DNA of 63,971 bases, filler included, from Kipferlia bialata (GCA_003568945.1; 3 parts of 2 records of this genome joined end to end with filler, not necessarily neighbours in it), one strand, 5' to 3'. Shown: positions 516 to 37,063, counted from the first letter of the whole stretch. The notes: generated from the letters alone by a model not told the origin. Numbers and translations: made by a program.

Positions 516-748
516 CTCACTTCTTGAACCTATATCCGAGACCAGTAGAGTCCTCTATTACGGTAGACATACTCACTTCTTGAACCCACATGCGAGCCCT
601 GTGCTGGGGTCCTTGACCACACACCCCGCCCCCAGCATCCTGTGTCCACCCTGTATAGGCAGGGAGAGCATGGCATGCACAACTGACTCAGTCCCGTAGA
701 AGGGGTGCGCAGCCACCTGAGTTAGACACACACATAAATAATATAGTA

Positions 749-790
<42 letters not shown>

Positions 791-3700
791 TACTATTGAG
801 GTATAGAGAAGTAGAAGGGGTGCTCGGCAACATGAGTTAGACACACATTTTATGCTAATCGTGTACTAAATCAAGCATTTGAGCAAATCAACTTGTCCTC
901 CGTCAGCACATGCCAATCATACAATAATGGCACACCATGTCATATATGAATATATGAATATATGTATATATATTAGGAGACTGTGTACACACCTTGTCCC
1001 CTGTCACCCCGTGCCCCAGTGCTATGACGGGCTGGGAGTCAATGACCATGGCGGTGGGCCTGTCCTGTTATAAGTACATATGTATATGTATATATATATA
1101 TATATATATACATTTCCATGTTATACTTTCATATATATGATGATATATGTGTTCACATGACCATGGCGGTGGGCCTGTCCTGTTGTCAGTCTAAGTGAAT
1201 ACTAGTACATGTCTATGGGTATGTATATACAATACTGTAAACATCACTGACCTCAGATGGCGATGGTCTCTCTAGGCAGTATGAGTACACTCTCCCTGTG
1301 CCGCATGGCATAGTAGGCAGACCAGACACATCGTGTGGGAATACCCACTGGGTACTGTCCATACCCAGTCTGACAGGGTGGAAGGGGGTGATACGGAGGC
1401 CACCTGGGGTTAGATATCAGTATAGATAATAGTACATAGTACTATCGAGATATATCAGATATAAAGTTGTATTAGGGTGGCAGGGGGTGATGCGGAGACC
1501 ACCTGCTGTTAGGTAAAATATTATTGTAATAATAGTATCATTGAGATATATTAGATACATTTCATTGGAATATAATGTATAAGGGTGGAAGGGGGCCACC
1601 TGGGGTTGGCATAAACCATCGACTGTACATGGAGCATATGGTACCTGGGAACACCACAAAGTGCTTTGATGTAATGATTCGTATATAAAAAACACATAGA
1701 TACAGAACATGCTAGTTGGGATATATATTTGTGAAAAGAATACCTGGGAATACCACAAAGTGCTCATAGGCAGAGGCTTCAGTGGACAGGACATGCTCGA
1801 CCTGGGGAGGTGAGACAGCATGAAAATACTTATGGGTATATATAAATGTAGATGTAGCCATATCATCACATATAGGCAGATGCCTCTGTGGACAGGACAT
1901 GCTCAACCTAGGGAGGTGAGACAGGGATGTCAATAGAATTGATTAAGAGTCATAAAGCTACATCCATGCACTAGTATACCTTTGCCGTCTGCCCCCCTGG
2001 CACCATGACCTCTGTCATGTACATATAGTAGTAGATATACATAATACCAATATAGAATTATTCCAATACCTACATTCATATGCCTACCTTAGCTGTCTGT
2101 CCCCCTGGCACCATGACCTCTGTCCCAGGCACAACCTGGGGTGAGAGTATGATAATACAATTATACATAAATATGCATATACATATACAGCATGTGTATC
2201 TCTGGGGGTCAAGACATGTGATATACAGTATGGTAATTGGATGATGTAAACAAGTACACTCGTAACCCAACCCGGAGGTATAAGTATGGTACACATGGAT
2301 GATATAGCAAAGCAGCCTGGAGGAGTAAATGGCGACTGACATGTAAACACTAGTGTTGAAATACCTCCTGTGCCCTGCACAATGTGCCATCTCTGTAATA
2401 CATATATAAATATAAATATCTCTCTCTCTCTATATATATATATATGCATACATATGCACATACACACCTCCTGTGCCCTGCACACTGACCCCTCTGCCAA
2501 TTCTCTCTCTCTCTATATATATATTAATATCTATGTATAGATATGGTATATGTACAGTACCTCCTCTGCCCTGCACACTGACCCATCTGCCAATTCTCTC
2601 TCTCTATATATATATATAAATATCTATGTATAGATATGGTATATATGCATACCTCCTCTGCCCTGCACACTGACCCATCTGCCAGTGCCACCTTAGAGTC
2701 ACAGTGCACACAGGGGCCGGCACTAGAGGGTGAGTCTAGAGATATAGTATAGTATAGTATATATATATATATATATAGATAGATAGATAGATTGAATAGT
2801 CATCTGAGTCACAGTGCACACAGGGGCCGGCACTGACAGTGAGTATATGGGTAGAGAGTCATACAGTCAGAAAGAGAGAGATAGAGAAAGAATATATATA
2901 AACGTGTATATACATACAGTCTCCATACCTCGTGTTGAATGCCGCGGCACTTGTCATCCTGACCCCATATATATACATGACATAGTCACATACTACTATT
3001 TGAATATGGTAGTATATATGAATGTATATACATATATATATATATATATAAGTCCTCACCTCGTGTTGAATGCCGCGGCACTTGTCATCCTGACCCCATG
3101 GCTAGATGAGGCAGCAGGGGGGGGCATCACGTTGAAGGTGAGGTTCTGGCGGTCAGAGCACTACGTATATAGTATACACAATATGAAAGTGATAGAGAAT
3201 AGACAAATGTACTCATATATATAGAGAGAGAGGAGGCATCAGGGGCATCACGTTGAAGGTCAGGTTCTATGGGGTTAGAGCACTCAGCAATTACCCATTC
3301 ATGTATTTGCTATATATATACACAAGAACTCAGTGGCCATCATATATAGTAAACTCAACAGTGAAAGAACCCAATAATGAAGGTAGACCCACCTGCTGCC
3401 TGACAAGCTCTCTATGGAGCTCTCCCCCGTATGCAGCCAGGGACTTGTCCTTGTGGTTGTTGCACACCTGGGGGGTGAAACTCCGCGGTATTACCAAAAC
3501 TCTACACGATAGTAACAGACGTGCAATCATCCTTTGATGAGACATCATATAGCGTTTCTATAAGATAAACCTAGGTCCTCACCTCTCTGCAGTGGCTGAG
3601 GCATATGGAGTACAGGTAGTGCCTGCCCCACCTGTCCATGAGAGATGCATATCTACATACACAGCATAAATAGCTAAAAATGAGGAGAACATGATATAAT

Positions 3701-5898
3701 ACTGGAAGAGCTAGGTAGTTTCATACTCTGTCTGCCCCACCTGTCCATGAGACGTGTGTGTGTATACATATATATTTATATATATTGACACTGTCTGCCC
3801 CACCTGTCCATGTCAGTATCAGTATCATACAGATACTGATACTGATACTATATATATGTATAGTAGTGTATACACATATGTTTGTCTGCCCCACCTGTCC
3901 ATGTGCTCGGGGTCAAAGGCGAGGGACATCTGCTCCTGGGGCATTAGATGTATTCTATAGAATTCTTATATAACATAGTAACTATACATCATACCTTGTA
4001 GTCCCTGTCCAGCTGTGCCAGCCACACCATGGGTCCAGGGTATATTAATATGAATACATATATATATATTTATATATATTATATATGAGTATATACATCA
4101 TACCTTATAGTCCTTGTCCAGCTGGGCCAGCCACACCATGGGTCCTGTCTCATCTAGGGACTCGCCCTGCCGGCCAGTGACCTGGGGGGTGAGATGCATG
4201 CTAATACACACACAGTATGAATATAGAATAGAGCTCTGTTAATACCCTGCCTGCCACTCACCTGAGTGAGGGAGGTATTCACACATAGTAGTGCTCTACA
4301 CATAATAGTACAATAGGCATATTGTTATATACACTTAACCCTCACCTCGGGTATTGAGTCAGCCATATGCTGTGCACACATACTCATACACACACACACA
4401 CATATATATATATATGTATAAATGATATCACGCCACAAATACCTCTGGGACTGAGTCTGCCATGAGCTGTGCACCCTCTTCTATACTCATACACATATAA
4501 ATATACATATATTGATATGGTATACAGATGATATATATATGTATACATACACACTACACACACCTCTGGTATTGCCTCTGCCATCAGCTGTGCGTACTGT
4601 TGGGCCAGAGGGGGGCAGGGGATGTGGACGTTCTGGGGTGAAGGTGGTGTATAGTATTGAACCTATCCAGGTATCCTGATTACATAGCCGAATTGCATAT
4701 ACTATAACCATATACACATACCGGTGGTGCGTTGTGCACTGCCTCCAGGATGGCACTGCACAGGCTGTGTCTGGGAATGAGGGGATAGGTGGAGAGACAG
4801 ATATGTGTATAGATAGATACACTATACTATACTATATATATAACTATACTATATATATACTATATATGGACTGCCTCCAGGATGGCACTGCACAGGCTGT
4901 GTCTATGGGGTTAGATGGAGGATACATATATATATATATATATACTATCACTATGTATATACAGAATGGACAAGAGGTGATGAGTGGAGAGACAGATATG
5001 TGTATAGATAGATAGACTGTATGTACTATATATGGACTGCCTCCAGGATGGCACTGCACAGGCTGTGTCTGGGGGGTTAGAGGGTGTATGGACTGATGCA
5101 TATATATGTATATAGATAAATAGACTCTATAAATACACATCTATACTATATGGACACATCAAGAATGGCACTTCACAGGCTGTGTCTGGGGATTAGAGGT
5201 AGACTTTCTCTTTAAGTCTAAAATGTATATATACATACACACACCTCACGTAGTGCCACAGCTGAGCCTTTGTGTCTGGCACTGTTGACCTAGACGCATT
5301 GACAGGGACAGACATGACTGGGGGGTGAGAGGGATAGTATCTATCCCACTATGATGTATTACTTATGTACACTCCCTCTCACCCTGGTCTGGCCTTGTGG
5401 GCAGTCTGTATGTGAGGGATACATTGTCTCCTCCCAGTGACACAGGCACACTCCTCGACTGGCCACACAGCACAGCACCCAGGGGGATCTAGACATGAGG
5501 GGAATAGTATAAGAGGGAATAGTATATATATATGTGTGTATATGTGCAGTACGTGACAAGCCACAGAGGACAGCACCCAGGGGGATCTATGGGGTCAGCA
5601 CACATCCCGGAGGGTAATGCAACTAATAACGAATTGAGACTGTACTCCCATGCCTTACTCCCCCCTGTAGTTGAAAGTGTTTACAATCCAAGTATGATGC
5701 ATCCCTACCTCCCCCCCCTTGCACCCCTCGAGTGTGACGTCTGTGGCCATGGTGCACAGGGCAGCTGGGTCAGTATATAGTAGTGGAATGAGAGCGAGAG
5801 AGATAGCGAGAGAGGGAGAGAGAGATAGAGAGACATCGTTGGCCATGGTGCACAGGGCAGCTAGAGGTTAGAGTATAGAAGGGAAGATAGACAGGTAG

Positions 5899-5932
<34 letters not shown>

Positions 5933-6080
5933 GTCTGTGGCCATGGTGCACAGAGCAGCTGGGGTGAGGGTATAAATATACATATATACAGAATACTGTA
6001 TATAGTAATAATAGAGAGAGAGAGAGAGATAAAGAGTTATCTATGGCCATGGTGCACAGGGCAGCTGGGGGTGAGGATGC

Positions 6081-6123
<43 letters not shown>

Positions 6124-8427
6124 CCCACCTGCCGTGCTGTGTACAAATGCTTCTTCCTCTCTCTCTCCTTCTCTCCCTCTCTCGCTCTCTCTCTCTCTCT
6201 CAATACATACGTATATATATACCTGCTGTGCTGTGTACAAATGCCGTGCCCACAAAGGAGGAGTCTGGGATGTAGGTGTACTGGCCTGACCTGGGGTGGG
6301 AATGGGTAGACAACTATACGCTAAACACATATTAGTATATAGATATATATATATATATATCCATCTCACCCCATCTGTGCCAGGTCTGCCAGCAGGTGTG
6401 TGTTGATGTTGCCGTAACCAAAGGCAAAGGTGTCCACACGGTAGCCCTGGGCGTGAGTCAAAACGCGAGATGGCACCGATACTTTGTATATACTCATGTA
6501 GATACATACTATCTCTACCTTAGTCTGTGGGTACTTTGTGTGGTATGACTCCAGCACTGTGTCTGAGTCTGGGCCCTCGTTGGGCATGCCATCGGTCAGG
6601 ACACAGATCTGTCTGAGAGTAAGTATCACGATATATATATGGGACTATAGTTATATATACTATAGTCCCGTTGGGCATGCCATCGGTCAGGACACAGATC
6701 TGTCTGGGGTGAGGAAAATATATACTATACACTGCACCATAATATATATATATATATATATTAGTACTTGGGCACACCGTCGGTCAGGACACAGATCTGC
6801 CTAGGGGTGAGGATAATGCACTGCTTACACTGTAAGTATATATATACAAACAAAAATCACACCCACCTGACACAGTCCTTCGGTCCCTCCATGGCTATAC
6901 ATATACACACGTATATATGTATATATATACAAATATATACATATATATATATATAGTCATACATTCAAATGAATTAGGCAAACATCGTATATCATCCCAC
7001 CTGACACAGTCCTCAGGTCCCTCCATGGCTATCTGCAGAGCTGTCTGGAGACCAGTGCCCATGGCAGTGCACCCACCGCAGGACAGGGACTCTGGGTGTG
7101 AGGGTACAATATACATATACTACATATACTATATATATACATTGATAGAGTCCCCATGGCAGTGCAGCCACCGCAGGACAGAGACTCTGGAGGGTAAGTG
7201 TATCATATATGTATATATTAATATATAACTCATGCATACATATATCCATGACACGTGCAGGACAGCTACTCTGGGTAGAAGGTCATGCATGACATATCTA
7301 TGTATATCCTACTTGCATTATGTACACACTTGATGCATATATAGTATCCACATACATGGTCCTGCATACCTATCTCCCTCTCTGCCCTCTCTATGCCCCG
7401 ATGCTAGTACATCCATCAATACCCATTATCTATATACTACTACACAATTGACTACTGATACCTATCTCCCTCTCTGCCCTCTCTATGCCTCCCTCCTCGA
7501 TGATGATATTTGCATACATATATATATATATACCTTTACTAGGTATTTCATGTACCTATCTCCCTCTCTGCCCTCTCTATCCCCTCCCTGGTAGTCCTGG
7601 TGGGTCTCAGGGCCACATGCACTCGGGAGTCAAAGCCGATGACAGAGACGTAGTCTACAGTTAGTAAACAGATACATATATATATATGTATATATATAGA
7701 ATATGGGTTACATGCACACAGGAGTCAAAGCCAATGACAGAGACATAGTCTGGAGTGAGTAAACAGATACATAGATAGAGAGATATACATACAGAGAGAG
7801 AGAGAGAGAGTATAGGTTACATGTTCACGGCAGTCAAAGCCAATCACAGAGACATAGTCTGGCATCAGAATGTACGGGTGGAACATACATACGATACACT
7901 GCCTTGCATACAACAATCTCCATGCATATAATCAGTATCTTCAGCACACATGACTATGAATGAATATACACATGCAGCAGTACACATGAATACTCACCGT
8001 TGTCGCCCAGGAAGTTAGACACTGCCTTGGCCCCCAGCTTGACAATGTCCAGGAGGTTGTTGGAGAACTCCTGAGGGTAAATGTATAATGGATATATAGT
8101 ATTACATATATATATAGATATGTGTGTTATAACAACAGATCTACCATACGCCATACCTCCAGCTCATTGTTTGCATTCCTCTTGGTGGCAGACCGGGTCA
8201 TGCTGCCTGGGTCAGTGCATGGTTATACACCAGACATATAGATATACTCAGATATAATGTGTCAATATATATAGAATATATATATGTGTACATACACTGG
8301 GATACAGTAATCCACCATTAAATATTCTAAACTCTGACGATACAAATACCTGATGTGTCCAAGAGTAGGATACAGTGCACAGTCGTGTACATATATATGT
8401 AAATGTATATAATGTACATATGATTCA

Positions 8428-8463
<36 letters not shown>

Positions 8464-10330
8464 TTGGGTATATACACACCTGACGTGTCCAAGAGTAGGA
8501 CACAGTGCACAGTCGTGTGCATATATATGTGAATGTATATAATGTACCTATGATTCAGTATATATATATATATATATCATAATGTACACACCTGATGTGT
8601 CCAGTAGCAGCACACAGTGCACGGGCTGTCTGTGTTGGGCAAGGGACTCCAGGGAGATGTTGACCTGGGGGTTGGTGCATATTCAAAACTACAGTATTAT
8701 ACACATATATAGGAGAAGGTTACCTATACATGTTTTGACCGACACATATACTGTATATACACATCCTTATGTACTCACCAGTGTATCCGGTGCCTCACTC
8801 CTCTCCCCCACTGTCTCCCTCAGCTCCATGGGGGTGTGGGTGCACACAAGCAGAGGGGTGGCTGGGGTTACTCAGGATAGCTACATACATACATGCACTA
8901 GTTATGATATATCTGTTCCTGGACAATGTGTTCATGCAGTGTATACATTTATATAGCTATTTGTATATACATATGTATAATGTATATATCACTGTACCTG
9001 GTGTGTCTGTGCCTGGACAATGTAAATATAGTGTCCGATTCTAATACATCATATATATATACATATACTCGATGTTCCATATATAACACTGTACCTGGTG
9101 TGTCTGTGCCTGCACTGCCCTTCCTGTCTCCCATCCACTCCTGGGGGGTCAGAGGAGACTGTATAAATATGTACATGGGTATACATGTGTACATGTACAT
9201 AGATATTTGTGTGAAACTGATACTTCTCTGCCTGTCAAACATCCACTCCTGGGGGGTCAGAGGGGTACACTTACGTGTGGTTGTATAGCTGAACACTGTA
9301 TCCATATGTCTTCCACTTCGGTGTCTGCCTGTCTGTATATACACGCTGTCTGTATATACACGTACTGTATGAATGCATCAAATGAATATGTAAATACTCA
9401 CTGTATACAGTATATCTGTATGTACCTCGATGTCTGCCTTGAGCTGTCTGTACATATGTGTTTATCAACATACATGTATCCATATCTATCCTAGCTGTCT
9501 TGCACATATATACGATATGTATACAACTATGACACATGTATCCATACCTCGATGTCTGCCTTGAGCTGTCTGTGCACACACACACACACACCCATATATA
9601 TATATGTGTATGTAAATATATTATGATTGTCATATTAACAGCATACACACATGTACAGTGTAATGAATCGATATACCTCGATGTCTGCCCTGAGCTGTCT
9701 GTTGGGCAGCAGCTGGGCTATGGTGCACGCAACCTAGGGTGGGTGTCACATTGCTAGGCTATACAGCATCATTAGTCCATCATAATGGTGTGGCAGTCAT
9801 GTCCATCACAGAGACAGAAACATGGTTAATGAGACTGCCATTCTCTATGCCAAGAGGGCATTCATGTGGATGTGTGACTCTTCCACAAGCAATAGTACTA
9901 ATTTGTAACACACCCATATCCACCCTACCTGTGTGGGAGTTGTTGGGTTCTCTCCTAGCCACTCCTCAATGGCAGCCCTGGGGATAAGGAGGTAATGCAT
10001 AGAGTTCATTATCATATCTCTCATGCATTCCTTTATAGATACACACACTTATGTATATGGATGAGCCACTCCTCAATGGCAGCCTTAGGGGTAAGGAGGA
10101 AGAGGGATACAGTTAATACTGATACATACATATGTATATATGAGTTACCCCATGATGGCTGATAGTCCCATATTATTAATATAGACTATAATATAGATTA
10201 TTTGCATATAGAGAGTGTAGATTCATTATATACAGAGAGAGACTGAGTACACATACCTCTCGTATGAGTGTCCATCTGCTGCCAGCACAGGGTCATCCAT
10301 GAGGGAGCCCTGATGTTAGTGGGCATATAT

Positions 10331-10383
<53 letters not shown>

Positions 10384-10500
10384 AGGAGGGAGAGAGGGAG
10401 GACAGGGGCATCCATGAGGTATCAATGGGGCTAGGGTATGTGTATATGTGTGTATAAGAGAGAGAAAGAGAAAGGAAGAGAGAGAGAGGACAGGGTCACC
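516..10500 (-). repeat. Intronic direct repeats that are partial copies of adjacent exon ends (exon echoes) separated by TA/CA/GA-rich filler
   Basis: Examples: 1158-1184 repeats 1042-1068; 1872-1907 and 1642-1665 repeat parts of exon 1744-1801; 2363, 2466 and 2559 repeat the end of exon 2653-2722; 4869, 5033 and 5152 repeat the start of exon 4722-4770; 5831, 5930 and 6044 repeat the start of exon 5709-5764; 8350-8380 and 8480-8510 repeat the end of exon 8592-8664. Confidence 0.95.
573..10309 (-). CDS. U-box + VWA + Vwaint + Hint (Vint-type, hedgehog-related autoprocessing) protein; 29 exons visible, 5' end probably lost at the contig break
   Basis: Hand-spliced GT-AG exons in transcript order: 10257-10309, 9929-9977, 9677-9733, 9095-9140, 8779-8861, 8592-8664, 8157-8206, 7998-8070, 7556-7654, 7001-7091, 6519-6612, 6370-6446, 6223-6290, 5709-5764, 5383-5488, 5245-5317, 4722-4770, 4564-4632, 4104-4181, 3895-3935, 3583-3631, 3393-3467, 3060-3145, 2653-2722, 2088-2135, 1744-1801, 1252-1403, 993-1064, 573-716. 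Total 2139 nt, phase-consistent, ending GFKK*. Motifs: U-box LMDDPVLAADGHSYERAAIEEWL...LLPNRQLRADIEEW; VWA MIDAS VLLLDTSGSM, YVSVIGFD, VLTDGMPN, VDTFAFGY, YTYIPDSSFVGTAF; Vwaint RWGRHYLYS...CNNHKD...YGGEL; Hint GP|CVHCDSKVALADGS, LRITPFHPV, WVFP, VIALGHG, AHPFYG. Confidence 0.9.
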
Positions 10501-10751
10501 CAATATATGTATAGGGATGTAGAAAGGGAAGGGAGAGAGCCGGTAAAGGCTCATGTATGAGGTAGCCTTACCCTAAGGTAACAGGAAGTGAAAAGAGATA
10601 GAGGGGGGGAAGGGGGGGGGTTGACAGAGAGAGAGAGAGAGAGAGAAATTACATACCAAGTCTATATACAGCCTGAATAGAAGTGAGGGTATGGCAGTGG
10701 AATGATGAGGGGGGTGGGGGGGGGGGGGGGGTGAGGGAATTTATGGCCCCG

Positions 10752-10851
10752 NNNNNNNNNNNNNNNNNNNNNNNNNNNNNNNNNNNNNNNNNNNNTTAAT
10801 TAATTAANNNNNNNNNNNNNNNNNNNNNNNNNNNNNNNNNNNNNNNNNNNN
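10752..10851. other. Artificial contig linker (44 N + TTAATTAATTAA + 44 N)
   Basis: Exactly 100 nt with a central all-frame stop palindrome, flanked by poly-G runs. Confidence 0.97.
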
Positions 10852-20711: not shown

Positions 20712-23700
20712 CTAGGCAGCGGCCTCTGCAGCCTCCACAGGTGCGGTGTGCAGGTACTCCATGAGCTCGGTCATGAAGGTCTCCATCACAGCCAGAGTCA
20801 CCCTCAGGGCCCAGGGCCGGGGCTCCATGGTAGAGCCGCGCTCCACCACCACGCGCACAATGATCTCCCTAGCCGCAGCCGGCAGCTCCTCGTTCCTGGC
20901 CAGCATCACCAGGAGGGGCACGAGGCGTCTGCTGTACAGGTTGGGGTAGCGAAGCTCGTTGCAGAGGCCGGACATGAGGAGGTACCTGCCCTCGTCACTC
21001 AGCTCAGTCAAGAGGGCAGACACAATCACTAGCTGGCTGGACACACGGTTGTTGGTACGGGTGATCCTGATTCCAATGGCCTCCAGCAGCTCTCTGTCAC
21101 ACACCCCACCTGGGCAGAGGTGCTGGTCGATGATGGTGCGGATGTAGGGGGTGAGGGGAGGGGAGAGGGCACTACCAACACGCATGGCGGCTCTGTACAG
21201 CTCGAGCAGGGTGGCTGTGAGGGCCTGGTTGCGGTGGATGGCAGAGAGGCCTGCAGAGAAGATGGACACGTGCTTCAGCGACTTGAGGCTGTCCAGCCTG
21301 AGGTTGACATCAACGTGGGGCTCCTCCACTCCAGGTGGGACTGCTGACAGCACAATGTTCCTGATGAATGCGGCACCGGGGGGGATGGCGTCTGAGATGA
21401 CAAAGTGCTGCATGACAAGGAACATGGGGTAGTCGGTGCGAAGGGTGTTGAGGAGCTGGCACGTAGCAGTGTACACGTTCTGCATCTCCGTGCCAGCCAT
21501 TGGCACCTCGGTGGCCAGGTAGGGCTTGAGCAGGCCCAACAGCTTGAGGAGCAGCATCAGGTACCCGGACTGGGCATGGGCAGGGGCTACGGCATAGCCC
21601 CCGAAGGAGTACGAGTCACCAAGCATGCCCCTAAGCAGGTCTGGCTGGGAGATGAGGTTGAGGTACAGGTGCACACGGCCTGGGGACAGGATGGAGCCGT
21701 AGAAGCGGCACATGACGCTGAGGAGGGGCACCCTCAGGTGCATCATCTCTGGCCTGTCCTGCATGGCATGCCTCACAAGCTCCCGGCACATGAGGGAGCA
21801 CAGCAGCTGGGCCCTACCCCCACCGTTCTGGGTGGTGACCACGGTGTTGAGGGCACGGATGAACCGCGAGAACTCCACGCACCGCCTGTACGTGAGGGTC
21901 TCCTCCTGGGTGAGGTTCGACAGGGGGCGTCCCTCCTCCGAGGTGACACCATGCACCCAGGCCAGGAGGGCGGGGGACAGGTCTGACACAGACACAGCCT
22001 CCAGCGTGTCAGCGGTGTGGCGGTGCACAAGGCCTGCCAGGGCAGCCACTGCGTCCATCTGGCTGTCGAGGCTGTCCTGGCCAGTCACCTTCTTGGGCAG
22101 TACCAGGGCCATCACCTGCCTCAGGATGTGGGACCAGATGTGACTGGTCTTGGCGGCAGTCGACCCAAGCCCACAGGCCTGCAGCCGGTGCACAAAGTGA
22201 CCTGTCAGGGCGTGCCTGAGGGCGTGGGAGGCAGGCATACGCTTGTAGGCGTGCACATACTCACTGAACACGTCCCCTGCGTCTCTGAGTGCCGGCTGGT
22301 CTGAGGCGAGAGAGGCCACCATCCGGACCCTGATAGTAGCCGAGTTGTCCTTCTCATCAGAGAGCACAGCATCGAAGCCAAGCACACCGGCCACACCCTG
22401 GCCTGAGCCTGTGAGCAGGGGGTAGGAGCCTGGGCTGGACAGCGCAGAGGAGGGCATCAGCTCGAGGCAGGACACAACGTCACAGAGAGCAGCAGACACC
22501 TTGGGGGGTGGCCTGCCCTCTGCCCTGCTCCTAGACACAGCCTCTACAGTGCGCACGGCAGTCTCCACCAGATACTCGGAGGCACACTGCCACTCAGTGT
22601 GGGAGCACCTCAGCAGAAGGCCAAGGGCGTTGGCCTGAGAGCCGGGGGGGCTCACAGCAGTGTTGAGGACGAAAGACGACACGCACACGGTGAGGGAGAG
22701 AGGGGGAACAGCAGATCCCACTAGGGCATCCACGAGGTGCTTCCTGAGGGATGTGTCGATGGCCTTGGCAGGAACGGCACCCTCGTTGACAAGGGCAGAC
22801 ACCAGGTGGCACAGGGTGCTGTCCGAGATGCTGCCCTCCTCGGTGGAGGCACGGGCGGCCACCTCAGTCTCGGCCAGAGACACGAGGGCCTCTAGGTAGT
22901 GCCTGCCATACTGGGCGCAGATACCCCCAGAGCGGGTGTGTCTGAAGGCTACCAGGGCACTGACAGCAGTGGACACATTGAGGAGACCGAAGGAGCCGGG
23001 CTCACCAGCAGCGGCTGCCTCGGCCTCTCCCTTGGTGATGACCTCCACTGCTAGCTTACCCACGGCCTGGGTCTTGCGGGCCCACCTGTTGCAGGCATAG
23101 CGCAGCTTGTGCAGAGATACGAGGATGGGGTGCTCGGAGGACAACATGGAGACAGAGAGGGTCTGGGGCTGGGAGGAGAGCTTGTTGGCGGTGGCCACCT
23201 GGCCCATGAGGGACGTCCACTCGGAGATGGGGGTACCCCTCTGGGTGTCCCTGTCGTGGAGCAGGGCAAGCATCCTCTTGCGGCGCAGGAGGAGAGAGGC
23301 CCCGACTGCGGCCCATGCGTCTCCTTGTTGGTGCTGGCTCTGACCCACGAGGGTGGCGAGGGTGGCCTCGATGGTGGGGGAGGAGGAGGGGCCGGTGGGG
23401 AGGAAGGACAGGGCGAAGAAGGAGGGGTTCGTGGCAGAGAACCTGCTGTCCTGGTGCAGTGCCATGCGGGTCTCGACAGACACAGACTGGGCAGAGGATC
23501 CATCCAGATAGGGGAACTCTGCGAATGTCTTAGTGTGCCTGGCCCTGTTCACCTTGACCCTGCTGGCCTCGGTGATGGTGGGGTGCTCGCTGTGCCTGTG
23601 CAGGATGTGTAGGTACACATCAACAAGGGGCAGGGAGGGCACATCGTTCCTAGGGGCAGAGGGCTGCACACCGTAGAGCAGCTCGGGAGGGAGCATGGCG

Positions 23701-26700
23701 GCAATGCGAGGGGGCACCACACGGTCTGTGGCAATGTCTGTCCTGCTGAACTTGTTAGTCACATGGGCAGCGGCGTTACCAAGCTCTCTGATGACCTCGC
23801 TGACCCACTTGTCGACCACAGCACGCAGGATGGGGCCAACCAGGCCCATGGACTCAGGCAGGGCCCTGACAGCCAGGAGCAGGGTGTCCAGGACGTGTGC
23901 ACGGAGGGGGTGCAGCAGAGAGGCAGCACAGAGGGAGGATGCAAACACGTACACAAAGTTGGTACGGATGGTCTGCAGCCGAGGGTCGTTGCCCTGCACC
24001 ACCCCATCTACGGTGGACACGGCCACTGCAGCTGCGCGGTCGAGGGCGGGCTCTCCCATCCTAAGTGCATCCACCTTGAGGCGCTCGAGGGCCCTGAGGA
24101 GGCCGGGGTTGGCGAGGAGGAAGGCAGACACGTACATGTCGGGCACAAAGTGGGACTCCTTCTCGGTGGTGCCAGAGGCAGGGCCAAACCCATTCAGCAT
24201 GAGGGCTGGGTTCTGGGTGACGATGGAGGGGAGCACCACGTCGATGGAGCCCGGGGTGGCCTGGGACAACACAATGCCGGTGGAGTGGGGGGAGAGGGCC
24301 TCGGGCTCCTCCTGCTCCTGACGGGCCATGGGCACGGCGGGGAAGTCCTGGCCCTGGGGGGAGCGCACTGGCTTGGGAGTGAAGGAGACCCTGGGCTCAG
24401 CGGGCACAGCTGCCTCGTCTGCAGCACTCTGGCTGAACACACTCAGCTCAGGCACCTGTACGTGGCTGGGAGTGAGAGGGGGTATGCAGGTGTGTGTCAC
24501 ACTGAATGAGACTGCATTGTTCCTATAGTACTGGCCAATACCTGCGGCGTGGGGTGTGGACTGCCTTGGGGACGCCCTCGTTCTTGGCGGCCTCAATCTC
24601 CTGGGCAACGTCCTGGGGTGAGACAGGGAACTAAAAGAATCACTAAAGTATGTGTACTCAGTGTATATCCACTGCCCATCTGCCCTACCTTCCTCCTGCC
24701 CTCCATGACCTCCTCGTCGTGGGCGTGCTTCTCCTGGGCAGTGCTGAGCCCCTTCATCTCGCTCTTGATGAGGTTGATGTCGCACACCATGGCCCAGTGA
24801 GTCTTGGAGTCAGTCTCCGGGTACTTCTGCCTCACCCTCTTGATGGCGGCCTCCATCCTCGACACCACGTCCAGCACCCAGCTGGAGGTGGGCCGGATGA
24901 TCTTGTTCTCCTTGCCTTGCAGCAGTAGGTGCTTGGCAAAGATGACAACAAGGGCCAGCCTAGGGGGAGTTGCGTTCTCAGACCTCTCGATCAGCATGGG
25001 GAGGTCCAGCTCGTCTCTGAACACAGGCCTGTCCCTTCTGATGATGGACACACTCAGCCACGTGGCAATCTGGTGGAGCCTCTTGGTGACCTGTGCCTCT
25101 ACATCACTGGCGGCCTCTCTCCTCCGCCTGTCCGCCTTAGTCTTCTTGTCCTCAGACCCCTTGGCCTTGAGGCTCTCCCCAAAGGCATCGCTGAACATGA
25201 CATCAATGCATGCACTTAGAACGTCGAAGGTCACACCACGCACAACGCGAGAGAAGGGGAGCATGAGGGACTGGTCTGACTTCTGCCACGTGCCCAGCCT
25301 GCCCAGCAGGTGCTGGGGGAGGGGGAGCTCGGATGAGAGGTCGCCCAGGGAGGCCGACCCCATGTTGTCGATGAGCGACAGGAGCTGGGGGTGGTGGTTG
25401 GCCTGGGGTAGCAGACGCATGTCGAGCAGCTCCTCGGCAAGGAGCACCCAGTACTGGGGGGGGATCAGGGTGAAGAGGTCCCGGGCCTTGCTACCTGCGT
25501 TGTCGGGGGTCAGCTGGTTGAGTGTCTGCCTGACCTGGGTCAGCTTTGATGCCGACAGCACCCCCTGCAGCTTGGGTCTCTGCTCCACAGGCATGGCCCT
25601 CTCTGCCTCAGCAGCCACCAGGGCCAGGGCAGAGGCATTCAGGGCATGGCTGGGGAGGAGACACAGCATGCGCGTCTGCAGGTTGTCGGAGTCCCTGTCC
25701 GGCACGTCCCTGCCTATCAGGCTGTGGAGGGTGAACACAAGGCCGGTGTCAGCCTTGACACAGGACAGACGCAGCAGAGAGTTGACATAGCCGCGTGCCT
25801 CAGTGAAGCGGTAGGGCCTGGGGGCCACGGATGCCTGGGCCTTCTCCCTGCGCTGCTGGAAGAGGGCAGCACTGGCCAGCTGTCTCAGCAGACGCACACC
25901 CCTGCCCACGGTCTGGTCCTGTGCAGTCAGGAAGGCATACATGTGGCTGAGGTACATTCCCACGGATGGGGGGGTGAGGAGTGACCGGATGTAGAAGGCA
26001 CCCAGCATCTCTGCCATCGACTGGTCCACCTCATCCGACCATGCGTTCTGCTCCTCGGCCTCCAGGGCATTGGAGGGCCACTCCGCCATGATCTGCAGGA
26101 TCTGCAGGTTGAGGCCCGTGCGGTACTTGTTGAGGGCCAGCCTGGCCTGGTCGGTGTCTGCATCCCCTCCCTCACTCTCTGTGTCCATCTGCAGCTGGGA
26201 CTGGGCCCTCTGCACCGCCTCCTCCACAGACAGACCGTCGTCTAGCAGGGCAGCGCAGATGTCGTCTGTGGACTGCAGCACCGCCTCCAGCTCCTTGGCA
26301 GCCAGGTCCGCCCTCTGCCTCTGCTGCAGTATGGTGGCCACCTGCCCGTCCTGACTCAGGATACGCTGGGTCAGACCTGTGTAGAGCAGGGCGGTGGTGG
26401 TGTCGTTGGCGGCGGCAAGGGACGCCAGACAGTGACCGGAGTGGGGCTCCAGCACCCTCCATATGTCAGCAACGTGGGTGGGGCTGAGCTGCACAGAGTG
26501 TGGGGTGGGCTCGAAGAGCTTGCCCAGCTCAATCACATCTCTGGGCAGGATGGTCTCCAGCTGCTGGGGAGAGAAGAGGCGCTTGGCCAGGAACATGAGC
26601 ACCGACTTGAAGAAGGCCTCGCCGTCCAGCACTATGCGCTGGCCAATGACCAGACCGATGTCGGCCAGGCCGTTCTCTGCAGCCACCAGGGTGGCCTCGA

Positions 26701-29599
26701 GGGCAAAGGGCACGAACTCATTGTTGACCAGGGACCCCACCACTCCAATGTCACTGGCCAGAGAGACCAGGACAGGGAGGCCGCTGGGGGACATGCGGTA
26801 CACGACACAGAAGCCTCCTGGGAGGAAGGCGGGGGCCCTCTCTCTGAATGTGAGAATAGATTATAACAAAACCGCCTTAAAACTTAACAACAACAAGACC
26901 CCCGTACCTGATGAAACCAAGCACAGCCTTGACAGCCTCAGCTGTGGCAAGGGCCACGTGCTCTCCGCCCCTAGCTGCCTGGTCCTTGGCCCTCTGCAGC
27001 ATGTAGGACACGTGGTGCTGCAGGATGGCCTGCACGCACTGCTCCCCTATCTGCCTCAGCAGCTTCTGACCCTCAACGTCGAGGTCGTCTGTCAGCCTAG
27101 TACCGTCATTGGGTACACAGGATGCCAGTGTGACAGCCAGCTGCATGGGAACCTGAGAGTAAGGGACAGTAGTCAGAGAAAGAGAGAGAGGAAGGGGGTA
27201 TAGTTAGAGACAGGAACAGTATTCAAAGACATGTACCTGCCGGATCAGCTTGTGGAAGATCTTGTGCACGGCGCTGTCCTTAGACACACCAGGTGTCACA
27301 CCCATGCGGAGCAGAGCCCTAACCAGAGGACTGCAACGCCAGAGGAAGGTGAGGTGGGTGAACCGGGGGGGCAGGGCGATGCCGTTACACACGGCCTGTG
27401 CGGCATCGGAGAGGGACATCTCCGTGTCCTCCTCTGCTACACCCTCGGCAAGCACCTCCCCTGCTGCGGCCCTGCGCTCTCTCTCCACGAGCATCAGGAC
27501 GGAGGGGGCGAACTCGGACACACCTGTACAGTCGAGGGCCTCAGCCACCACCTTGATCCTCTCCAGTCTGGTGTGGATGCCGGTCAGGTCCCTCTGCCCT
27601 GCCACCTGGTCGATGGCTATGGCTATGTGCTGGGTCAGCTGGATCACGGCAATCAGCAGCTTCATCTGGGCGTCTGCGTTGGCAAAGGGCAGGAACAGAG
27701 CATCCAGGGGGAACCGGCCAGTCTCTGGCTCCTGGGGGGCTGTCTCAGGGCTCTGGCTGTGCTTGGCCCTCTCCTGGGCGATCTTCTGCCTGGTGGCCGA
27801 GGAGGCGAAGAACACGTTCACCATGAACTCGACCCCCTCCTCCATGTGCTGCACAGTGCCCTCGGGGGGGAAGAGGCCGGGCCTGTCGAGCTGGGCCACG
27901 ACCTGGGACCAGTCGATGCGGTACCCGGCATGCATCTCGTGCACAGCCAGGATGACGCCGAGGTCGGCACTGAAGGGGTCGGCCAGGAGGTCGGGTCTGC
28001 GCCTGATCTGGTTGCCATCGTTCTCTGCAATCTGGTCAATCACGTGCTGGGGGAAGGACATCTGCCTGGCGATGCTGACTGCCGTCTCGCTGACCTGTCT
28101 GCTCTTGGGCCAGTGCAGACACACGGCATGCAGCATGTCAGACACCACAGAGGCGGCGATGGGCTGCAGGTTGAACTGGTTGTACTCCCTCAACACAGCC
28201 TGGGTGAGGGGGGGAGAGGTAAAGGGGGATAGAACGACATAACTCCTACAATGATAGCGGCAATCACTCACCTGCAGGAGAGGCCTCGTGAGGGCTGGTC
28301 CGTGCATCTCCACCAGCCTCACCAGCACCTCGGCTGAGGGCTTCTCAGCTGTGTGGGCAACTGCAGGCTGGGCAGCACCTAAGGGTGAGAACAGGATAAG
28401 AGAGAGAGAGAAATACAGGGGGGGGGAGGGGGGATGCGTGACCATCCATGGATATTTCTCACCTCTGTTGTATGAGGCAGCATCGGGTACCATGCCGTAG
28501 GGGGATGGAGTCATCCTGCGTATCAGACTCGAAGAGATGAGTATCACACGGAATTCCAACAGCACTTCGATATTCCCACTTCGCAGGCAACCCCTACCTG
28601 TGGGGGTGTACTGCGTATGGGGCCTGACTGTAGTCCATAGGGACCTGGCCTGACAGTGAGAAAAAAGACTGATTGAGATGGAAGGGACAACAAAGAGGCA
28701 TAGTACAGTGTACATCCCACTCACCCTGCTGGGGCTGCCTCTGGGGCTGTGTCAGGGGTGCCCTAGCCTGGCCCTGGCCCTGGTGTTGCCGGTGGCGCTT
28801 GAATGCCTAAGAGTTAGGAGAAGTAAATACAACTCACATATACACACACATGCTCCTTCACATTGAGCTAACCAAGCACAATGTATGTGCCGTTTTCCCC
28901 ACACACACATATATATATATACATATATACACACACACATATATATATATATATATACCTGGAGGGCATTGAGGGCCGGTGCACTCAGGTCCTGAGGGTT
29001 GGAGGCCTGGGAGTGGGCCACACGCATGAGAAGCTCCTTCGCTGGGTACGATATGGGCTGCTCTGGGCTGTTGGCCAGGTAGTACAACGACACGATCTGC
29101 AGCGAGGGCGTGAGGTTGATGAGCACCGTCTGGATGGCCCTGCCCATGATCTCAATCACCCTCCGGTCCAGCTGGGCAGTCGGCATGTCCTTGCCACGCT
29201 GCTGGTACTGCTTCTGGGACTGCAAGGCCGCACGCCTCGCAGACATGTACATCCCCTCCATACCGGCCCTCAGCAACTCTCCACAGGGCTCCACAGACAC
29301 AAACTCTGTCACCATGTATTCAAGCACAGTGCGCAGACGCTGCTGTGCTGGAGACCTCTTCAGGAAGATCAGCTCCATGATCAGCTGAACAACAATCTGG
29401 AACACACCCACATTCTGTCTGATCATCTGAGGGTGAGAGGGAGAGGGAGAGAAGAGTCTCATTGACAACACACCTGGTGGAGTGACCCGAGAACGGCTTT
29501 GTATTCCGTCTCATTAACCTCTTTCCTGGTCAGGGACACCAGAAGCTGACTAACATGATTGCTGATGTTGGTCACACTATGCTGGTGAGGCCTTTCCAT
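20712..29599 (-). CDS. CNOT1: CCR4-NOT complex scaffold subunit NOT1 (divergent)
   Basis: C-terminal hallmark LSDEGRYLLMSGLCNELRYPN...REIIVRVVVERGSTMEPRPWALRVT, LRTDYPMFL and IRNIVLSAVP; MIF4G-like LNQLTPDN; IDWSQVVAQLDRPG. ATG at 29599 (MERPHQ...VSQLLVSLTRK), first exon 29474-29599, very long 3' exons. Confidence 0.92.
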
Positions 29600-29899: not shown

Positions 29900-32504
29900 A
29901 TGGTGAATCTTGTTATTCGGCTAGTTTCGGAAGAAGGTGTTGATGCTGGTACCACCGTGGATATCAGCGAGAATGTGACTCCTCAGGAGTTGAACATTGT
30001 GCTCAACTCTCTGAAGGATGAGGAGGAGCCGAGGCCATATTCCTTCTATCTGCAGGATACAGAGATCACCTCCACTCTGGCTAGTGCTGTCAAGAGCAGT
30101 ATGACCGCAGATGGCGCTCAGATGGCCACAGAGCAGACTCTTACTATCCAGTACAAGCCACAGGTTGGATACACATATCTTTTCATGACCAACAGTATTT
30201 TCAATTGAACACACTCACGCAGGCAGTATTCAGGGTCAGACCTGTGGGAAGGCTTGCTTGTGACCTGCCAGGACACAAGGTACTATATGGTATGACTATT
30301 CAGTGTATGTATGGTTGGCCCAATCTTACATATCTGTTGTATCCAAGTCTCACCCCTAGGATGCAGTGCTGTGCGTTGCTGTGTCCCCTAGTGGTCGGCT
30401 TGCCGCGTCTGGGTCTGGTGACAAGACCATCATTGTGTGGGACTTGCTCAGTGGCACTCCAAAGTGAGTTGTGTGGCGTATCTATGACACTCCATATGTG
30501 CATAGCAGTTGTACCCATCGGGAGATGTTGCTATACACCTACCCGTAACTGTGGAAGCCCCCCCCCTCCCCCCCCGTATTTTCCTCCACTCCCCTAACCG
30601 TATCACTTCTGTTCGTTGTAGTTATCTGACAGTCCGTCTTACCCTTCAGGTACACTCTGCGTGGCCACCGCAGTCACGTGCTGAGGCTGTCCTTCAGCCC
30701 TGATGGCACCCGCCTTGCCTCAGGATCCAGAGACGCAGAGGTCAGGTATGACTCAGTGATGAGTATCCTGATAGTATGGCTGGAAGTGTCTGTGCACTAT
30801 TCCCTCTCTAAATCTACCATCGTCTCACCTCTTCAGGATCTGGGACCCTATCAACAACAAGCCCCTCCTGACCAAGCCCCTGAAGGGTCACAAGCAGGTG
30901 GGGAGGGTGTTCTTACATATGTGGGAGGTGTTTAACCTTGGAGTACTCTTAACTGTATCCTGACCCCAGTTTGTGTCCTCTATGGCATGGTGTCCCTACA
31001 ATGTGGACCCTCAGTGCCGCAAGCTGGTGACTGGCTCCAAGGACGGGTCTGCCAGGATATGGGACGTGGTGACAGGTATACCACCTTCATAGTCATGGGT
31101 ATCCTATATCACTGCGTATTCCCCCCTCACACGCAGGCCGGTGCCTCATGATTCTTGCTGGTCACTCCAAGTGTGTCACAGATGTGGCCTGGGGTGGAAC
31201 TGACAGGGTGTACACATCCTCAGAGGACAGGTGGGTGGCCCGGGCCAGACACACTATTACCATAATCAATGACTCATGATTCTTCATGATTGTTGTTGTT
31301 CGTCCATGGCATGAATACCACCCCCAGGACTGTGCGTGTGTGGGACCCCAACACAGGCCTCAAGCTGATGACCCTCACAGGCCACGGCCACTGGGTCAAC
31401 GCCCTGTGCCTCAGCACCCACCACGTGCTGCAGCAGGTGGGGTAGATGTGCATATATGTATGTAGATATAGACACGGTATTGGCGTTGCAGTTTCCCATC
31501 CTCTCTCTGGAGTGACTGACTGTCAGGGTGCCTTCCACAGAGGCAGGAAGGACGTTGGGGAGGGAGAGACCCTATCTCCCGAGGAGCATGCCAGGAGGGA
31601 GAGGGGCAAGATGCTGTCCACGGCCCAGGAGAGGTAGGGGAATCTGGGAAACGCTGGTGGTACTCTGAGTGAATATGTCATTCTTTCTCTTCTGACCGTT
31701 CAGGTATGCAGCCGTTGCCGGTAGTGAGGGAGAGAGGGAGTCTGTTGTGACATGCTCTGATGACATGACCCTGCACCTCTACAGGCCTGTCACCAATGGA
31801 GTTGAGCCTGTGGCCAGGTAGGGAGGTTGATATATATATATGTATAATACTCCCCCCTGTCTCACCCTGTAGGATGACTGGCCACCAGCAGTTGGTGTGC
31901 CACGTTGCCGTGTCTCCTGATGGAGAGTACATTGCATCCGCCGGATTCGATAACGTGAGTATTCTATATTCCAATGAGTAGCATTATGCAACACCTATAC
32001 CTCTCCTTTCTCCTACTCTCCTCACTGTAGGCCGTGCGTCTGTGGAGTGGCAGGACGGGCAAGTTCGTGGGGACCCTCAGGGGGCACGTCGGGAGGGTGT
32101 ACAGGTGGGTGGTACTGCTGATACTGATACCACTGAGTGTATATAGACTGCTCTCATTTGGCACTCATCGTCAGGGTTGCCTTTAGCCCTGACTCCCGGC
32201 TCCTCATATCCTGTTCCTCGGACTCTACCGCCAAGGTGTGTATGTATGCGTACGAAGTATTGAATATAGAGATAGAGGGGTATGAGTGAGTACCATATGC
32301 CCCTGACCCCCAGGTGTGGAACGTGGCCAAGGGCAAGCTGGCCAAGGACCTGCCCGGCCATGCCGACGAGGTGTATGATGTGGCCTGGTCTGGCGATGGA
32401 GGCACAGTGCTCACGTGCAGCAAGGTATGGACATGGTATGTGTACTCATTGACTAGTGTATCCCCTCACCCCAGGACAAGCTGGTCAAGGTGTGGAGGCA
32501 CTGA
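29900..32504 (+). CDS. NLE1: Notchless/Rsa4 (NLE domain + WD40 repeats), 60S ribosome biogenesis factor
   Basis: MVNLVIRLVSEEG...ELNIVLNSL...PYSFY...EQTLTIQYKPQ|AVFRVRPV...LPGH; later RMTGHQQLV..VAVSPDGEYIASAGFD, LRGHVGRVY, VWNVAKGKLAKDLPGHADEVY, DKLVKVWRH*. Many short GT-AG introns. Confidence 0.95.
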
Positions 32505-32799
32505 GGTGACAATGTGTATGGTTGATGGTTGTGTTGTTCTTTCGTGACGTGTGTTGAATTTGTTTTACTCGTGGGCACAGACTCTTTTGTTAATAGATTC
32601 CAGAGCTGCAGAGATAATAATTACTTCAACTGTACATGCAGATATGCAGCATATACTTGCCAACCTCTCAGAGTGTATTGACTAGACAACCTTTACTGAT
32701 ACACGCTGGGCATCAAACACCCGAGCAAACTAACGAAACACAAACAATCGAATACACATCCCAGTCAAAACAGCATACATACAACGCACGGCGCCCCCC

Positions 32800-35436: not shown

Positions 35437-35536
35437 NNNNNNNNNNNNNNNNNNNNNNNNNNNNNNNNNNNNNNNNNNNNTTAATTAATTAANNNNNNNN
35501 NNNNNNNNNNNNNNNNNNNNNNNNNNNNNNNNNNNN
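35437..35536. other. Artificial contig linker (44 N + TTAATTAATTAA + 44 N)
   Basis: Same 100-nt structure as 10752-10851, after a long poly-C run. Confidence 0.97.
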
Positions 35537-35639: not shown

Positions 35640-36635
35640 CCGACTGAGCCTGTCCTGACGAGACCGGCACAGAAGTTGGAGGCATTCTTGAAGGAGGCCT
35701 GGGGGTTGGAAGAGAGAGGGCATGAAGTGTAAACGATACTATGCAGTACTCCAATTTAAGTATATGAATGAATGGTAAATATACAGTGGCCACCCACCCT
35801 GACCATCTACCCCAGTATATATATATATATATATGCATACACTGACATACCCTGACCATCCATTCCAGCTTGAACAGCTTGGACTCGGGGGTGGCAGCAC
35901 CCACACACAGCCTGGGGGGAGAGAGAGAGAGAGATATATATATATATATATAGATAGAGAGAGAGGGAGAGAGAGAGGGAGAGAGAGAGTTGTCTCACTT
36001 GAAGTCTGGGGAGAGTGCAGAGAGCTCCTCGGCATACTCCTGCAGGGCGGTGAAGGCCTCAGCGGGGATGGGGGCAGAGCTGACATGAGGGGGGGGGGGG
36101 CAGAGTGGGGGGACAACAGAGGTAGGAGGATAGGATGTTGGGCAGGGGAGAGTGGAGGGAGAGAGAGGGAGAGAGAACCATTCAGTTGTTGAGATGGTTG
36201 GTACCGGTACCGAGTACAGATCAGCTATGACAGATATAACAATAACAATGTAGATCAAGGTCCAGACCATCACAGGTGCTATGAGAGAGGTATAGTGTAA
36301 CACGTGTATCCTAAGTGCGTGAAATCCACAGTACATATACTGATACCGATGGGTTTAGTATTGGAACAATACACGGTACCATATACACACAGCTCAATAC
36401 CACCCCTCACCTGTACTTCCTGGTGCTGTATCTGGTGGCCATGGCGGCAGTCAGCATGTCGGCATCCCTGGGGTGAGGGAGTGAGCATGTCTCTACAGTG
36501 CAAGGGAAGTGAATATGAAATGGCATAGAACAGGTCCTGTTCCAAAACACACAGGTAAGATATGGAGTACACAGAATATCCATGCCTGATGATGATAGGG
36601 AGCACGGCATCGAAGTTGAGGGCAGGGGTGGACAT
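35640..36635 (-). CDS. Hypothetical protein, 5' part only (five exons, 3' truncated at the linker)
   Basis: Phase-consistent exons give MSTPALNFDAVLPIIIR|DADMLTAAMATRYSTRKYS|SAPIPAEAFTALQEYAEELSALSPDFK|LCVGAATPESKLFKLEWM|ASFKNASNFCAGLVRTGSV. This needs a GC-AG first intron. Confidence 0.6.
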
Positions 36636-37063
36636 ATATATAGGTCAGGTGAAGAGAGGGTGAGACAGACAGAGACTTGGATTCGGTGATCAATGATTGA
36701 TTTTGACAATGATGTGACATTTTAAGACTCGATTCCGCAGTCAAACTAGGCCAAGTAGTCAATTCAACATGGCTGGGGCTCCTAGCCTGGGGCAGCTGTG
36801 TATATACGGAATACACGTGGCAATTGAGTCTCAATATTGATTTCTTTCCAGAAACAGAGACCTACATTTGCTGATAGTAGACTCCCCAACATGACATGTA
36901 GTCTATTCTCGATTCAATCCCCTGCAAAGGAGAAACACTGCACACAAAACACACACACACAGCTGGCTGAACACACACACAATGATTCAGCCTCCTGCCA
37001 AAACACTTACGAGGCAAAAGATACTGAATTCATCAGCACTCCCTCTCAGCCTTAGCCATACAC

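Follow-up and report, generated by a model that had tools for sequence, protein, structure and literature searches.

The introns of a U-box/VWA/Vwaint/Vint gene of the free-living protist Kipferlia bialata (GCA_003568945.1) have been lengthened by duplication centred on splice junctions, and they are filled with partial copies of the flanking exon ends, here called echoes. The gene has 29 exons on the minus strand, at positions 573 to 10309 of the window, the whole stretch of 63,971 nucleotides (nt) that was analysed; it joins three parts of two records of this genome with filler and is eukaryotic in character. On balance we lean towards the reading that the echoes are former working exon ends, complete with their splice signals, that were displaced into the introns by recombination with diverged alleles. 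They would then be a possible trace of sex in a group in which sex has not been observed. The gene model has 28 GT-AG introns and a single open frame of 712 codons plus stop, and its protein is the same as KIPB_000386 over 709 of 709 residues. That public entry, P0001, was the sole protein retrieved with exon 27 as query, and it carries a U-box together with VWA, Vwaint and Vint domains.

Each exon was aligned locally to its two adjacent introns, and at a score of at least 24 this gave 41 matches from 21 of the 29 exons. The same score was reached by 3 of 812 pairs of an exon and a non-adjacent intron, and other control comparisons were positive in 0 of 934. Twenty matches lie upstream and touch the 5' end of the exon, 19 lie downstream and touch its 3' end (one of them after the stop codon of exon 29), and two upstream matches touch neither end. 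None of the 41 is anti-polar, and no copy comprises a whole exon with its two splice sites, which rules out whole-exon duplication and mutually exclusive exons. A preliminary description of this DNA had proposed just such polarised copies, with only the central copy complete, and would have been refuted had exon-end matches shown no excess over controls; it held, and the examples it gave for exons 9 and 26 were located again (Table 1). Its estimate of one to five copies for most exons was right as to the exons, but at this cut-off the copies number one to four per exon. Leaving out the non-touching matches of exons 1 and 27 and the copy after the stop codon, 38 intronic echoes were retained; they occupy 19 of the 28 introns, all are polarised and all include the junction side. 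Seven neighbouring gene models hold 3 echoes in 136 introns. A scan anchored at splice sites gave 43 matches in the 28 introns here, 4 in 86 neighbouring introns (all in one gene) and 0 in the other 50. The neighbouring models come from our own predictor, which in a self-test placed 24 of 36 predicted exons as in the model, and they include some false introns; a dubious three-exon neighbour (G9) was left out of the echo counts.

Why should all the copies be oriented in this way? When one end of a tandem duplication falls in an exon and the other in the intron, the exon that stays complete lies on the inner side and the partial copy on the outer side; the polarity may therefore follow from geometry plus survival, with no special mechanism needed. 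The exonic part of an echo measures 21-42 nt, the longest being about as long as the shortest real exon (41 nt), and the length of an echo correlates only weakly with that of its exon (rho 0.27, p 0.095). Units are spaced 91-166 nt apart (median 106), and intron length grows by ~109 nt per echo (Spearman 0.93, 28 introns). The filler between echoes spans 55-130 nt with a median of 75.5, next to a median of 76 for neighbouring introns. Where an intron holds echoes of both kinds, donor echoes always stand ahead of acceptor echoes, and sister echoes have boundaries and filler starts in common. Tandem Repeats Finder reports junction arrays at three places only, as ordinary tandem repeats. Repeats confined to introns are rare: of 21 seed rows, 7 fall outside any exon or echo, where chance would give ~4, although fast filler turnover could hide old ones. 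The introns are rich in TA, as had been remarked, with 14.8 TA per 100 nt compared with 7.0-9.3 in the seven neighbouring models; an eighth, dubious model has 13.3. The filler does not derive from a single family of repeated elements, and non-sister fillers resemble one another at background level only, which rules out introner or transposon insertion with target duplication. A weak period of 12 nt is also seen in the echo spacings (p 0.004, the best among seven periods tried), which may be a clustering artefact at the lower bound and was not used.

The differences between echoes and exons are those expected of coding sequence. Over all 41 matches, third codon positions differ at 65 of 410 sites, the other two positions at 19 of 406 and 15 of 414. 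Base- and context-matched permutations reached the observed third-position count in 0 of 5000 trials under each of four schemes, and context-dependent mutation is thereby ruled out as the source of the silent bias. Silent changes make up 60 of 92 differences in the 38 echoes (p 2e-6), 39 of 55 when only the 26 nearest echoes, which are independent, are counted (p 7e-6) and 25 of 35 in the 17 singletons (p 3e-4), where a dead copy should show 26% and where 41% is the ceiling for duplication plus decay, with the live exon also drifting silently. Synonymous divergence (dS) between echo and exon is 0.25 and nonsynonymous divergence (dN) 0.037, a dN/dS of 0.15, and sister echoes compared with each other also have an excess of silent differences (15 of 30 against 26% expected, p 0.004). 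Differences that alter an amino acid are more frequent in echoes far from their exon (16 of 371 sites, compared with 16 of 794; p 0.033), and such far echoes contain stop codons. The splice signals, which the preliminary description had said were carried along, are intact. The AG is kept in 18 of 20 acceptor echoes, and a branch motif lies at the right distance in 20 of 20, compared with 9 of 343 other intronic AGs and with 22 of the 29 real acceptors that satisfy the same strict pattern; in 15 of the 20 it is spelled differently from that of the real site. All 18 intronic donor echoes have GT(A/G), and 15 differ at positions +3 to +6. At the junction identity is lost abruptly, sinking from ~0.9 almost to background over a few nt. 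Together, the silent bias and the intact, respelled signals argue that each echo diverged from the present exon mostly while it was still working as an exon end.

Plain tandem duplication, by slippage or sister exchange and followed by neutral decay with fast-mutating microsatellite filler, would yield the polarity, the donor-before-acceptor order and the growth of introns; the three junction arrays are ordinary tandem repeats and the fillers are TA-rich, much as in the minisatellites of the human F7 type. However, simulations of duplication plus decay with equal rates, 200 for each of four decay levels, never produced the observed silent fraction of 0.65, and the branch-motif pattern, intact but respelled, arose in 0 of 20000. 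Echoes 100% identical to their exon also stand beside unrelated intron flanks. We regard this explanation as improbable. The repeated local duplication first suggested for these introns thus stands for their lengthening, and its unequal-exchange part fits the common boundaries and filler starts of sister echoes, but it does not suffice for the silent changes and branch motifs. To judge from the simulations, simple duplication plus decay is insufficient and a diverged working template would be needed.

Could the arrays have been strung together by an assembler from pieces of different haplotypes? The silent bias and divergent flanks do resemble mixed haplotypes. We used a DNA sequencing run (X1) and an RNA-like run (X2, whose RNA status is deduced from its behaviour and supported by a spliced contig), with the stretch 1245-2145 as the test region. 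X1 holds 94% of the sampled 31-mers of the whole gene; X2 holds 13%, compared with 12.9% expected for spliced RNA. A single X1 contig crosses the test region (901 of ~9,800 nt) with 0 differences at a depth of 447 and spans five echoes, and the longest exact non-microsatellite repeat in the gene is 47 nt. X1 is possibly the source of the window and so represents a second assembly by another assembler rather than a second sample. Joined bubbles would moreover put acceptor echoes before donor echoes, the opposite of the order in all mixed introns, which rules out bubble concatenation. The echo arrays are not an assembly concatenation where tested, and for the gene as a whole we consider such an artefact highly improbable.

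The RNA-like contig, 2163 nt long, skips exactly the modelled introns 26 and 25, of 340 and 286 nt; it extends into exons 24 and 28, and no echo is part of it. At the level of contigs, which drop rare splice forms, the authentic outermost site is the one used in these two introns and no echo site is used there, so that of the copies the central one alone is in use. In the acceptor echo of exon 28, which is unused, the branch motif is more canonical than in the used acceptor (1065-1078), and the RNA-like contig still enters the real exon.

How might diverged working ends come to lie inside introns? In the model that we favour, a break near an exon end would be followed by invasion of the homologous allele through the exon, because allelic introns would be diverged and the exon would be the sole well-matched sequence. 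Synthesis would copy the donor's exon end, its splice site and ~55-100 nt of donor intron. The copied strand would then fail to anneal back and would be end-joined, in the manner of polymerase theta (PolQ), to the other broken end, which bears the old exon end and splice site. The outcome would be a complete exon with a new junction, and the old end of 21-42 nt would come after it on the donor side or before it on the acceptor side. Later misaligned exchange between an echo and the homologue's exon may multiply and refresh copies, since sister echoes have common boundaries and filler starts. Selection would retain the layouts whose outermost donor and acceptor still rebuild the exon, and these are the polarised ones. 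The upper limit of ~42 nt may reflect removal by single-strand annealing (SSA) or recognition as an exon; the longest echo lies below the repeat length of ~50 bp that SSA needs, as given in a portion of PMC8654963. The same portion describes tandem duplications from ~100 bp upwards that arise when failed intermediates of synthesis-dependent strand annealing (SDSA) are end-joined. The supplement to PMC8516963 lists PolQ, Spo11, Msh2 and five Rad52 entries for K. bialata but no Ku70, and that paper describes metamonads as lacking canonical end joining and fornicates as lacking Rad51A. In yeast, repair is known to switch templates between diverged sequences, according to an extract of PMC4215184.

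Several observations weigh against the displacement of allelic ends. The donor allele is hypothetical: a second allele was not seen, with no variant in 901 nt at 95% likeness, a search that could miss a 92%-identical copy. The silent bias was not replicated beyond this gene (three neighbour echoes, with one of three differences silent), and in simulations in which silent sites of the live exon changed four times as fast, the silent fraction was reached in 28-92 of 200 runs. The model leaves unexplained the near absence of echoes shorter than 21 nt, the 91-nt floor of the spacing and the concentration of echoes in this gene (43 anchored matches in 28 introns against 4 in 136 in the neighbours). 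Homology between sister fillers is mostly not shown, only 5 of 53 pairs exceeding the 95th percentile of non-sister pairs (p 0.03), a marginal likeness. Where an echo encodes a different amino acid, the replacement is not significantly conservative (p 0.11), and the two closest homologues share only 3 of 28 such differences. With distance from the junction these differences follow a mixed gradient (4 of 400 compared with 28 of 765, p 0.008 in a post hoc test; rank test p 0.21). Finally, the filler of intron 20, considered below, cannot derive from an adjacent donor intron.

Selection within one lineage could produce low dN and intact signals with no second allele, if echo and exon often converted each other or collapsed together, so that amino-acid changes in the echo were exposed to selection, or if echo splice sites still acted, as decoys or in stepwise splicing. 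The scarcity of amino-acid changes near the junction and the lack of variants in the DNA run are in its favour. Yet conversion at a purging level would also wipe out silent differences, and dS is 0.25; far echoes contain stop codons; and no contig uses an echo site in the two introns, with the loss of rare forms from contigs already noted. Stepwise splicing requires matched donors and acceptors, and introns 6, 8, 16 and 24 hold one kind only; among the 14 exons with acceptor echoes 3 begin with GT, compared with 10 of 29 overall. On the same two grounds recursive or nested splicing was rejected. Selection of this kind strikes us as unlikely.

The same mechanism could have worked with recent paralogues, now lost, unassembled or unannotated, as templates, and would then imply no sex. 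A fragmented published draft (11,564 scaffolds, as stated in a part of PMC5874029) would leave room for them, one paralogue exists at 57% identity, and sister echoes require several diverged sources. That protein is the closest public relative of P0001, which is alone in its 90% cluster; no closer copy was found among public proteins of similar or shorter length (the shorter-protein search gave 12 matches, none close), and none of 29 pattern matches in metagenome contigs proved to be a relative. We hold paralogue templates to be quite unlikely. Small DNA circles from the homologue's junction, integrating by a single crossover at the exon end, would account for a minimum homology of ~20 nt and for the narrow unit (91-166 nt, median 106), and circles below ~90 bp are hard to close. 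No circles have been observed, though, the spacing lacks a 10.5-nt period (p 0.48), and the median filler fits the ordinary intron median equally well, so that circles appear a poor prospect. Returning to displaced allelic ends, a wider claim would be that Kipferlia swaps splice junctions by homologue-templated repair genome-wide at hot genes, leaving old ends as ordered fossils, so that introns grow in intron-length steps, intron 20 was gained and past exchange is recorded; this we put forward tentatively, and with more doubt than belief.

Intron 20 is a candidate for intron gain by duplication of a segment containing AG/GT, to judge from its sequence. It opens with the first 9 nt of exon 21 and closes with the last 9 nt of exon 20. 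The segment is 18 nt long and occurs in four copies: AG/GT-containing coding sequence stands at both ends of the intron, and two more copies lie within it (GT at 3803 and 3740). The conserved WG.HY motif runs across the intron site ungapped in 10 of 10 aligned proteins. The public model also places this intron, and the RNA-like contig has 1745 nt ahead of exon 25 where exons 1-24 amount to 1665 nt, lengths that would agree with splicing but do not prove it. Alternatively, the ends of an old intron may have been replaced through RNA-templated repair.

Repeats that span splice junctions are known. Minisatellites at exon-intron borders occur in human F7 (a 37-bp variable number tandem repeat in intervening sequence 7, IVS7), CBS (IVS13), 6-16, lamin B2 and PDGF, as listed in part of PMC1557585. 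In the F7 type, as described there, a splice site and a piece of exon are reiterated in the adjacent intron and the outermost donor is used, as in Kipferlia; but each of those genes has one array, located at a donor and made of nearly identical units, whereas the Kipferlia gene has echoes at 26 junction sides, donors and acceptors, with one to three copies each. Nor are the units here alike from end to end: the intron part is mostly unalignable and the exon part is ~92% identical with a silent bias. The duplications seen in C. elegans helq-1 and brc-1, attributed to failed SDSA and polymerase theta in the portion of PMC8654963 mentioned above, are likewise direct and of ~100 bp or more. They use the sister as template and give copies identical at birth, unlike the echoes with their dN/dS of 0.15 and respelled signals, for which a diverged working template and filtering of the survivors by splicing would be needed. 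Intron gain by tandem duplication has been discussed for the Rogers model, ATP2A1, fission yeast and the potato RNA-dependent RNA polymerase (RdRp), in the passages of PMC4974935 that we consulted. As in Rogers-type gain, intron 20 is bounded by copies of an AG/GT coding segment and the protein is ungapped; unlike those cases, it has four copies with heterologous filler, and the other echoes create no new intron. In the potato RdRp the 3' end of an intron and the 5' part of an exon were duplicated, which resembles an acceptor echo. Partial internal gene duplications are common and can reshape introns (Gao and Lynch 2009, as cited in those passages), whereas the Kipferlia copies are gene-wide, of fixed size and anchored at junctions, with the signature of a diverged template.

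The first impression that this architecture was undescribed therefore needs qualification: single junction-spanning arrays are known, and what is new is the silent bias of echo differences, the respelled branch motifs and the collapse of identity at the junction. Literature searches, with most subscription journals outside their coverage, found no description of a gene-wide, two-sided, silent-biased form, and the parts covered of the K. bialata genome paper (PMC5874029) and of a spliceosome survey (PMC6679479) do not mention echoes. In those parts of the genome paper the 124,912 introns of this fornicate are argued to be ancestral and not gained. The echoes supply a concrete means of intron growth that can be counted, and intron 20 is a candidate gain. 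The covered part of the survey describes a reduced spliceosome, with 87 of 174 proteins. With up to three intact branch-plus-AG acceptors upstream of the one used, the gene offers a natural test of 3' splice-site choice, since first-come scanning would choose the wrong site, given introns of ~75 nt and a reduced spliceosome.

Both ends of the gene call for comment. The public model probably lacks the start of the gene, so that the 5' end would be incomplete. The U-box lacks its first residues, and the RNA-like contig is ~80 nt longer at the 5' side than the gene model; no convincing candidate for an upstream exon was found in 10309-10750, before the gap. At the other end, the copy of the last 30 nt of exon 29 aligns with a GTGAG donor-like site (minus strand, window 577-517) that overlaps the annotated stop codon. 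Because every other downstream echo ends at a donor, the true end of exon 29 may be 577, with another intron behind it, and the annotated C-terminus may be wrong.

Table 1. Coding exons of the Vint gene, its echoes and related copies, in window coordinates.
Feature	Position	Strand	Remarks
Coding exons 1-10	10309-10257, 9977-9929, 9733-9677, 9140-9095, 8861-8779, 8664-8592, 8206-8157, 8070-7998, 7654-7556, 7091-7001	minus	
Coding exons 11-20	6612-6519, 6446-6370, 6290-6223, 5764-5709, 5488-5383, 5317-5245, 4770-4722, 4632-4564, 4181-4104, 3935-3895	minus	
Coding exons 21-29	3631-3583, 3467-3393, 3145-3060, 2722-2653, 2135-2088, 1801-1744, 1403-1252, 1064-993, 716-573	minus	
Intron 20	3632-3894	minus	candidate gain
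Degraded upstream copy of exon 1 positions 6-26	10399-10419	minus	local alignment
Acceptor echo, exon 2	10064-10084	minus	21/21 identical; AG lost
Two donor echoes, exon 3	9548-9573, 9426-9451	minus	third, degraded, ends near 9316
Degraded acceptor echo, exon 4	9222-9248	minus	
Donor echo, exon 4	8998-9018	minus	
Two donor echoes, exon 6	8480-8510, 8350-8380	minus	four silent differences from exon common to both
Two acceptor echoes, exon 9	7710-7749, 7819-7858	minus	
Two donor echoes, exon 9	7462-7494, 7370-7398	minus	
Acceptor echo, exon 10	7149-7186	minus	3 differences, all silent; degraded second starts 7270
Donor echo, exon 10	6867-6898	minus	
Two acceptor echoes, exon 11	6669-6703, 6768-6799	minus	first 35/35 identical
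Donor echo, exon 13	6129-6150	minus	
Three acceptor echoes, exon 14	5832-5860, 5924-5958, 6040-6064	minus	
Acceptor echo, exon 15	5560-5586	minus	
Three acceptor echoes, exon 17	4867-4902, 5033-5068, 5159-5185	minus	
Two donor echoes, exon 18	4443-4472, 4346-4375	minus	
Donor echo, exon 19	3995-4036	minus	longest, 42 nt; degraded acceptor echo of exon 19 starts 4261
Acceptor echo, exon 23	3229-3266	minus	
Donor echo, exon 23	2929-2968	minus	40/40 identical, donor respelled
Acceptor echo, exon 24	2806-2832	minus	27/27 identical
Three donor echoes, exon 24	2561-2592, 2468-2499, 2365-2392	minus	identity and filler similarity drop with distance
Donor echo, exon 25	1980-2016	minus	3 differences, all silent; skipped in RNA-like contig
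Acceptor echo, exon 26	1872-1907	minus	4 differences, all silent; skipped in RNA-like contig
Donor echo, exon 26	1645-1665	minus	skipped in RNA-like contig
Acceptor echoes, exon 27	1474-1502; remnant 1582-1595	minus	skipped in RNA-like contig
Acceptor echo, exon 28	1157-1179	minus	23/23 identical; branch motif better than that of used site
Acceptor echo, exon 29	811-831	minus	AG lost
Copy of last 30 nt of exon 29 including stop codon	517-546	minus	left out of substitution counts
Four scattered echoes, same polarity, neighbouring 87-exon model (37984-55209)	55192-55209, 49307-49324, 39594-39615, one starting 38006	minus	

Elsewhere in the window, 100-base N gaps at 10752-10851 and 35437-35536 have a central 12-base linker with stops in all frames and long flanking runs of G or C, and a third gap consists of 951 N at 55490-56440. 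A large, mostly intron-poor gene at 20739-29426 (minus strand) resembles the CCR4-NOT subunit Not1 in its putative translation, and a WD40 gene at 29987-32505 (plus strand) likewise resembles Notchless/Rsa4. The model of ~87 exons at 36411-55427 (minus strand), which bears the four extra echoes, encodes more than 3,700 residues with a long Pro/Ser-rich start and has a median intron of 73 nt. In this neighbouring gene, at 44669-44793, a 63-nt tandem duplication confined to the intron lies right after the donor and includes no exon part.

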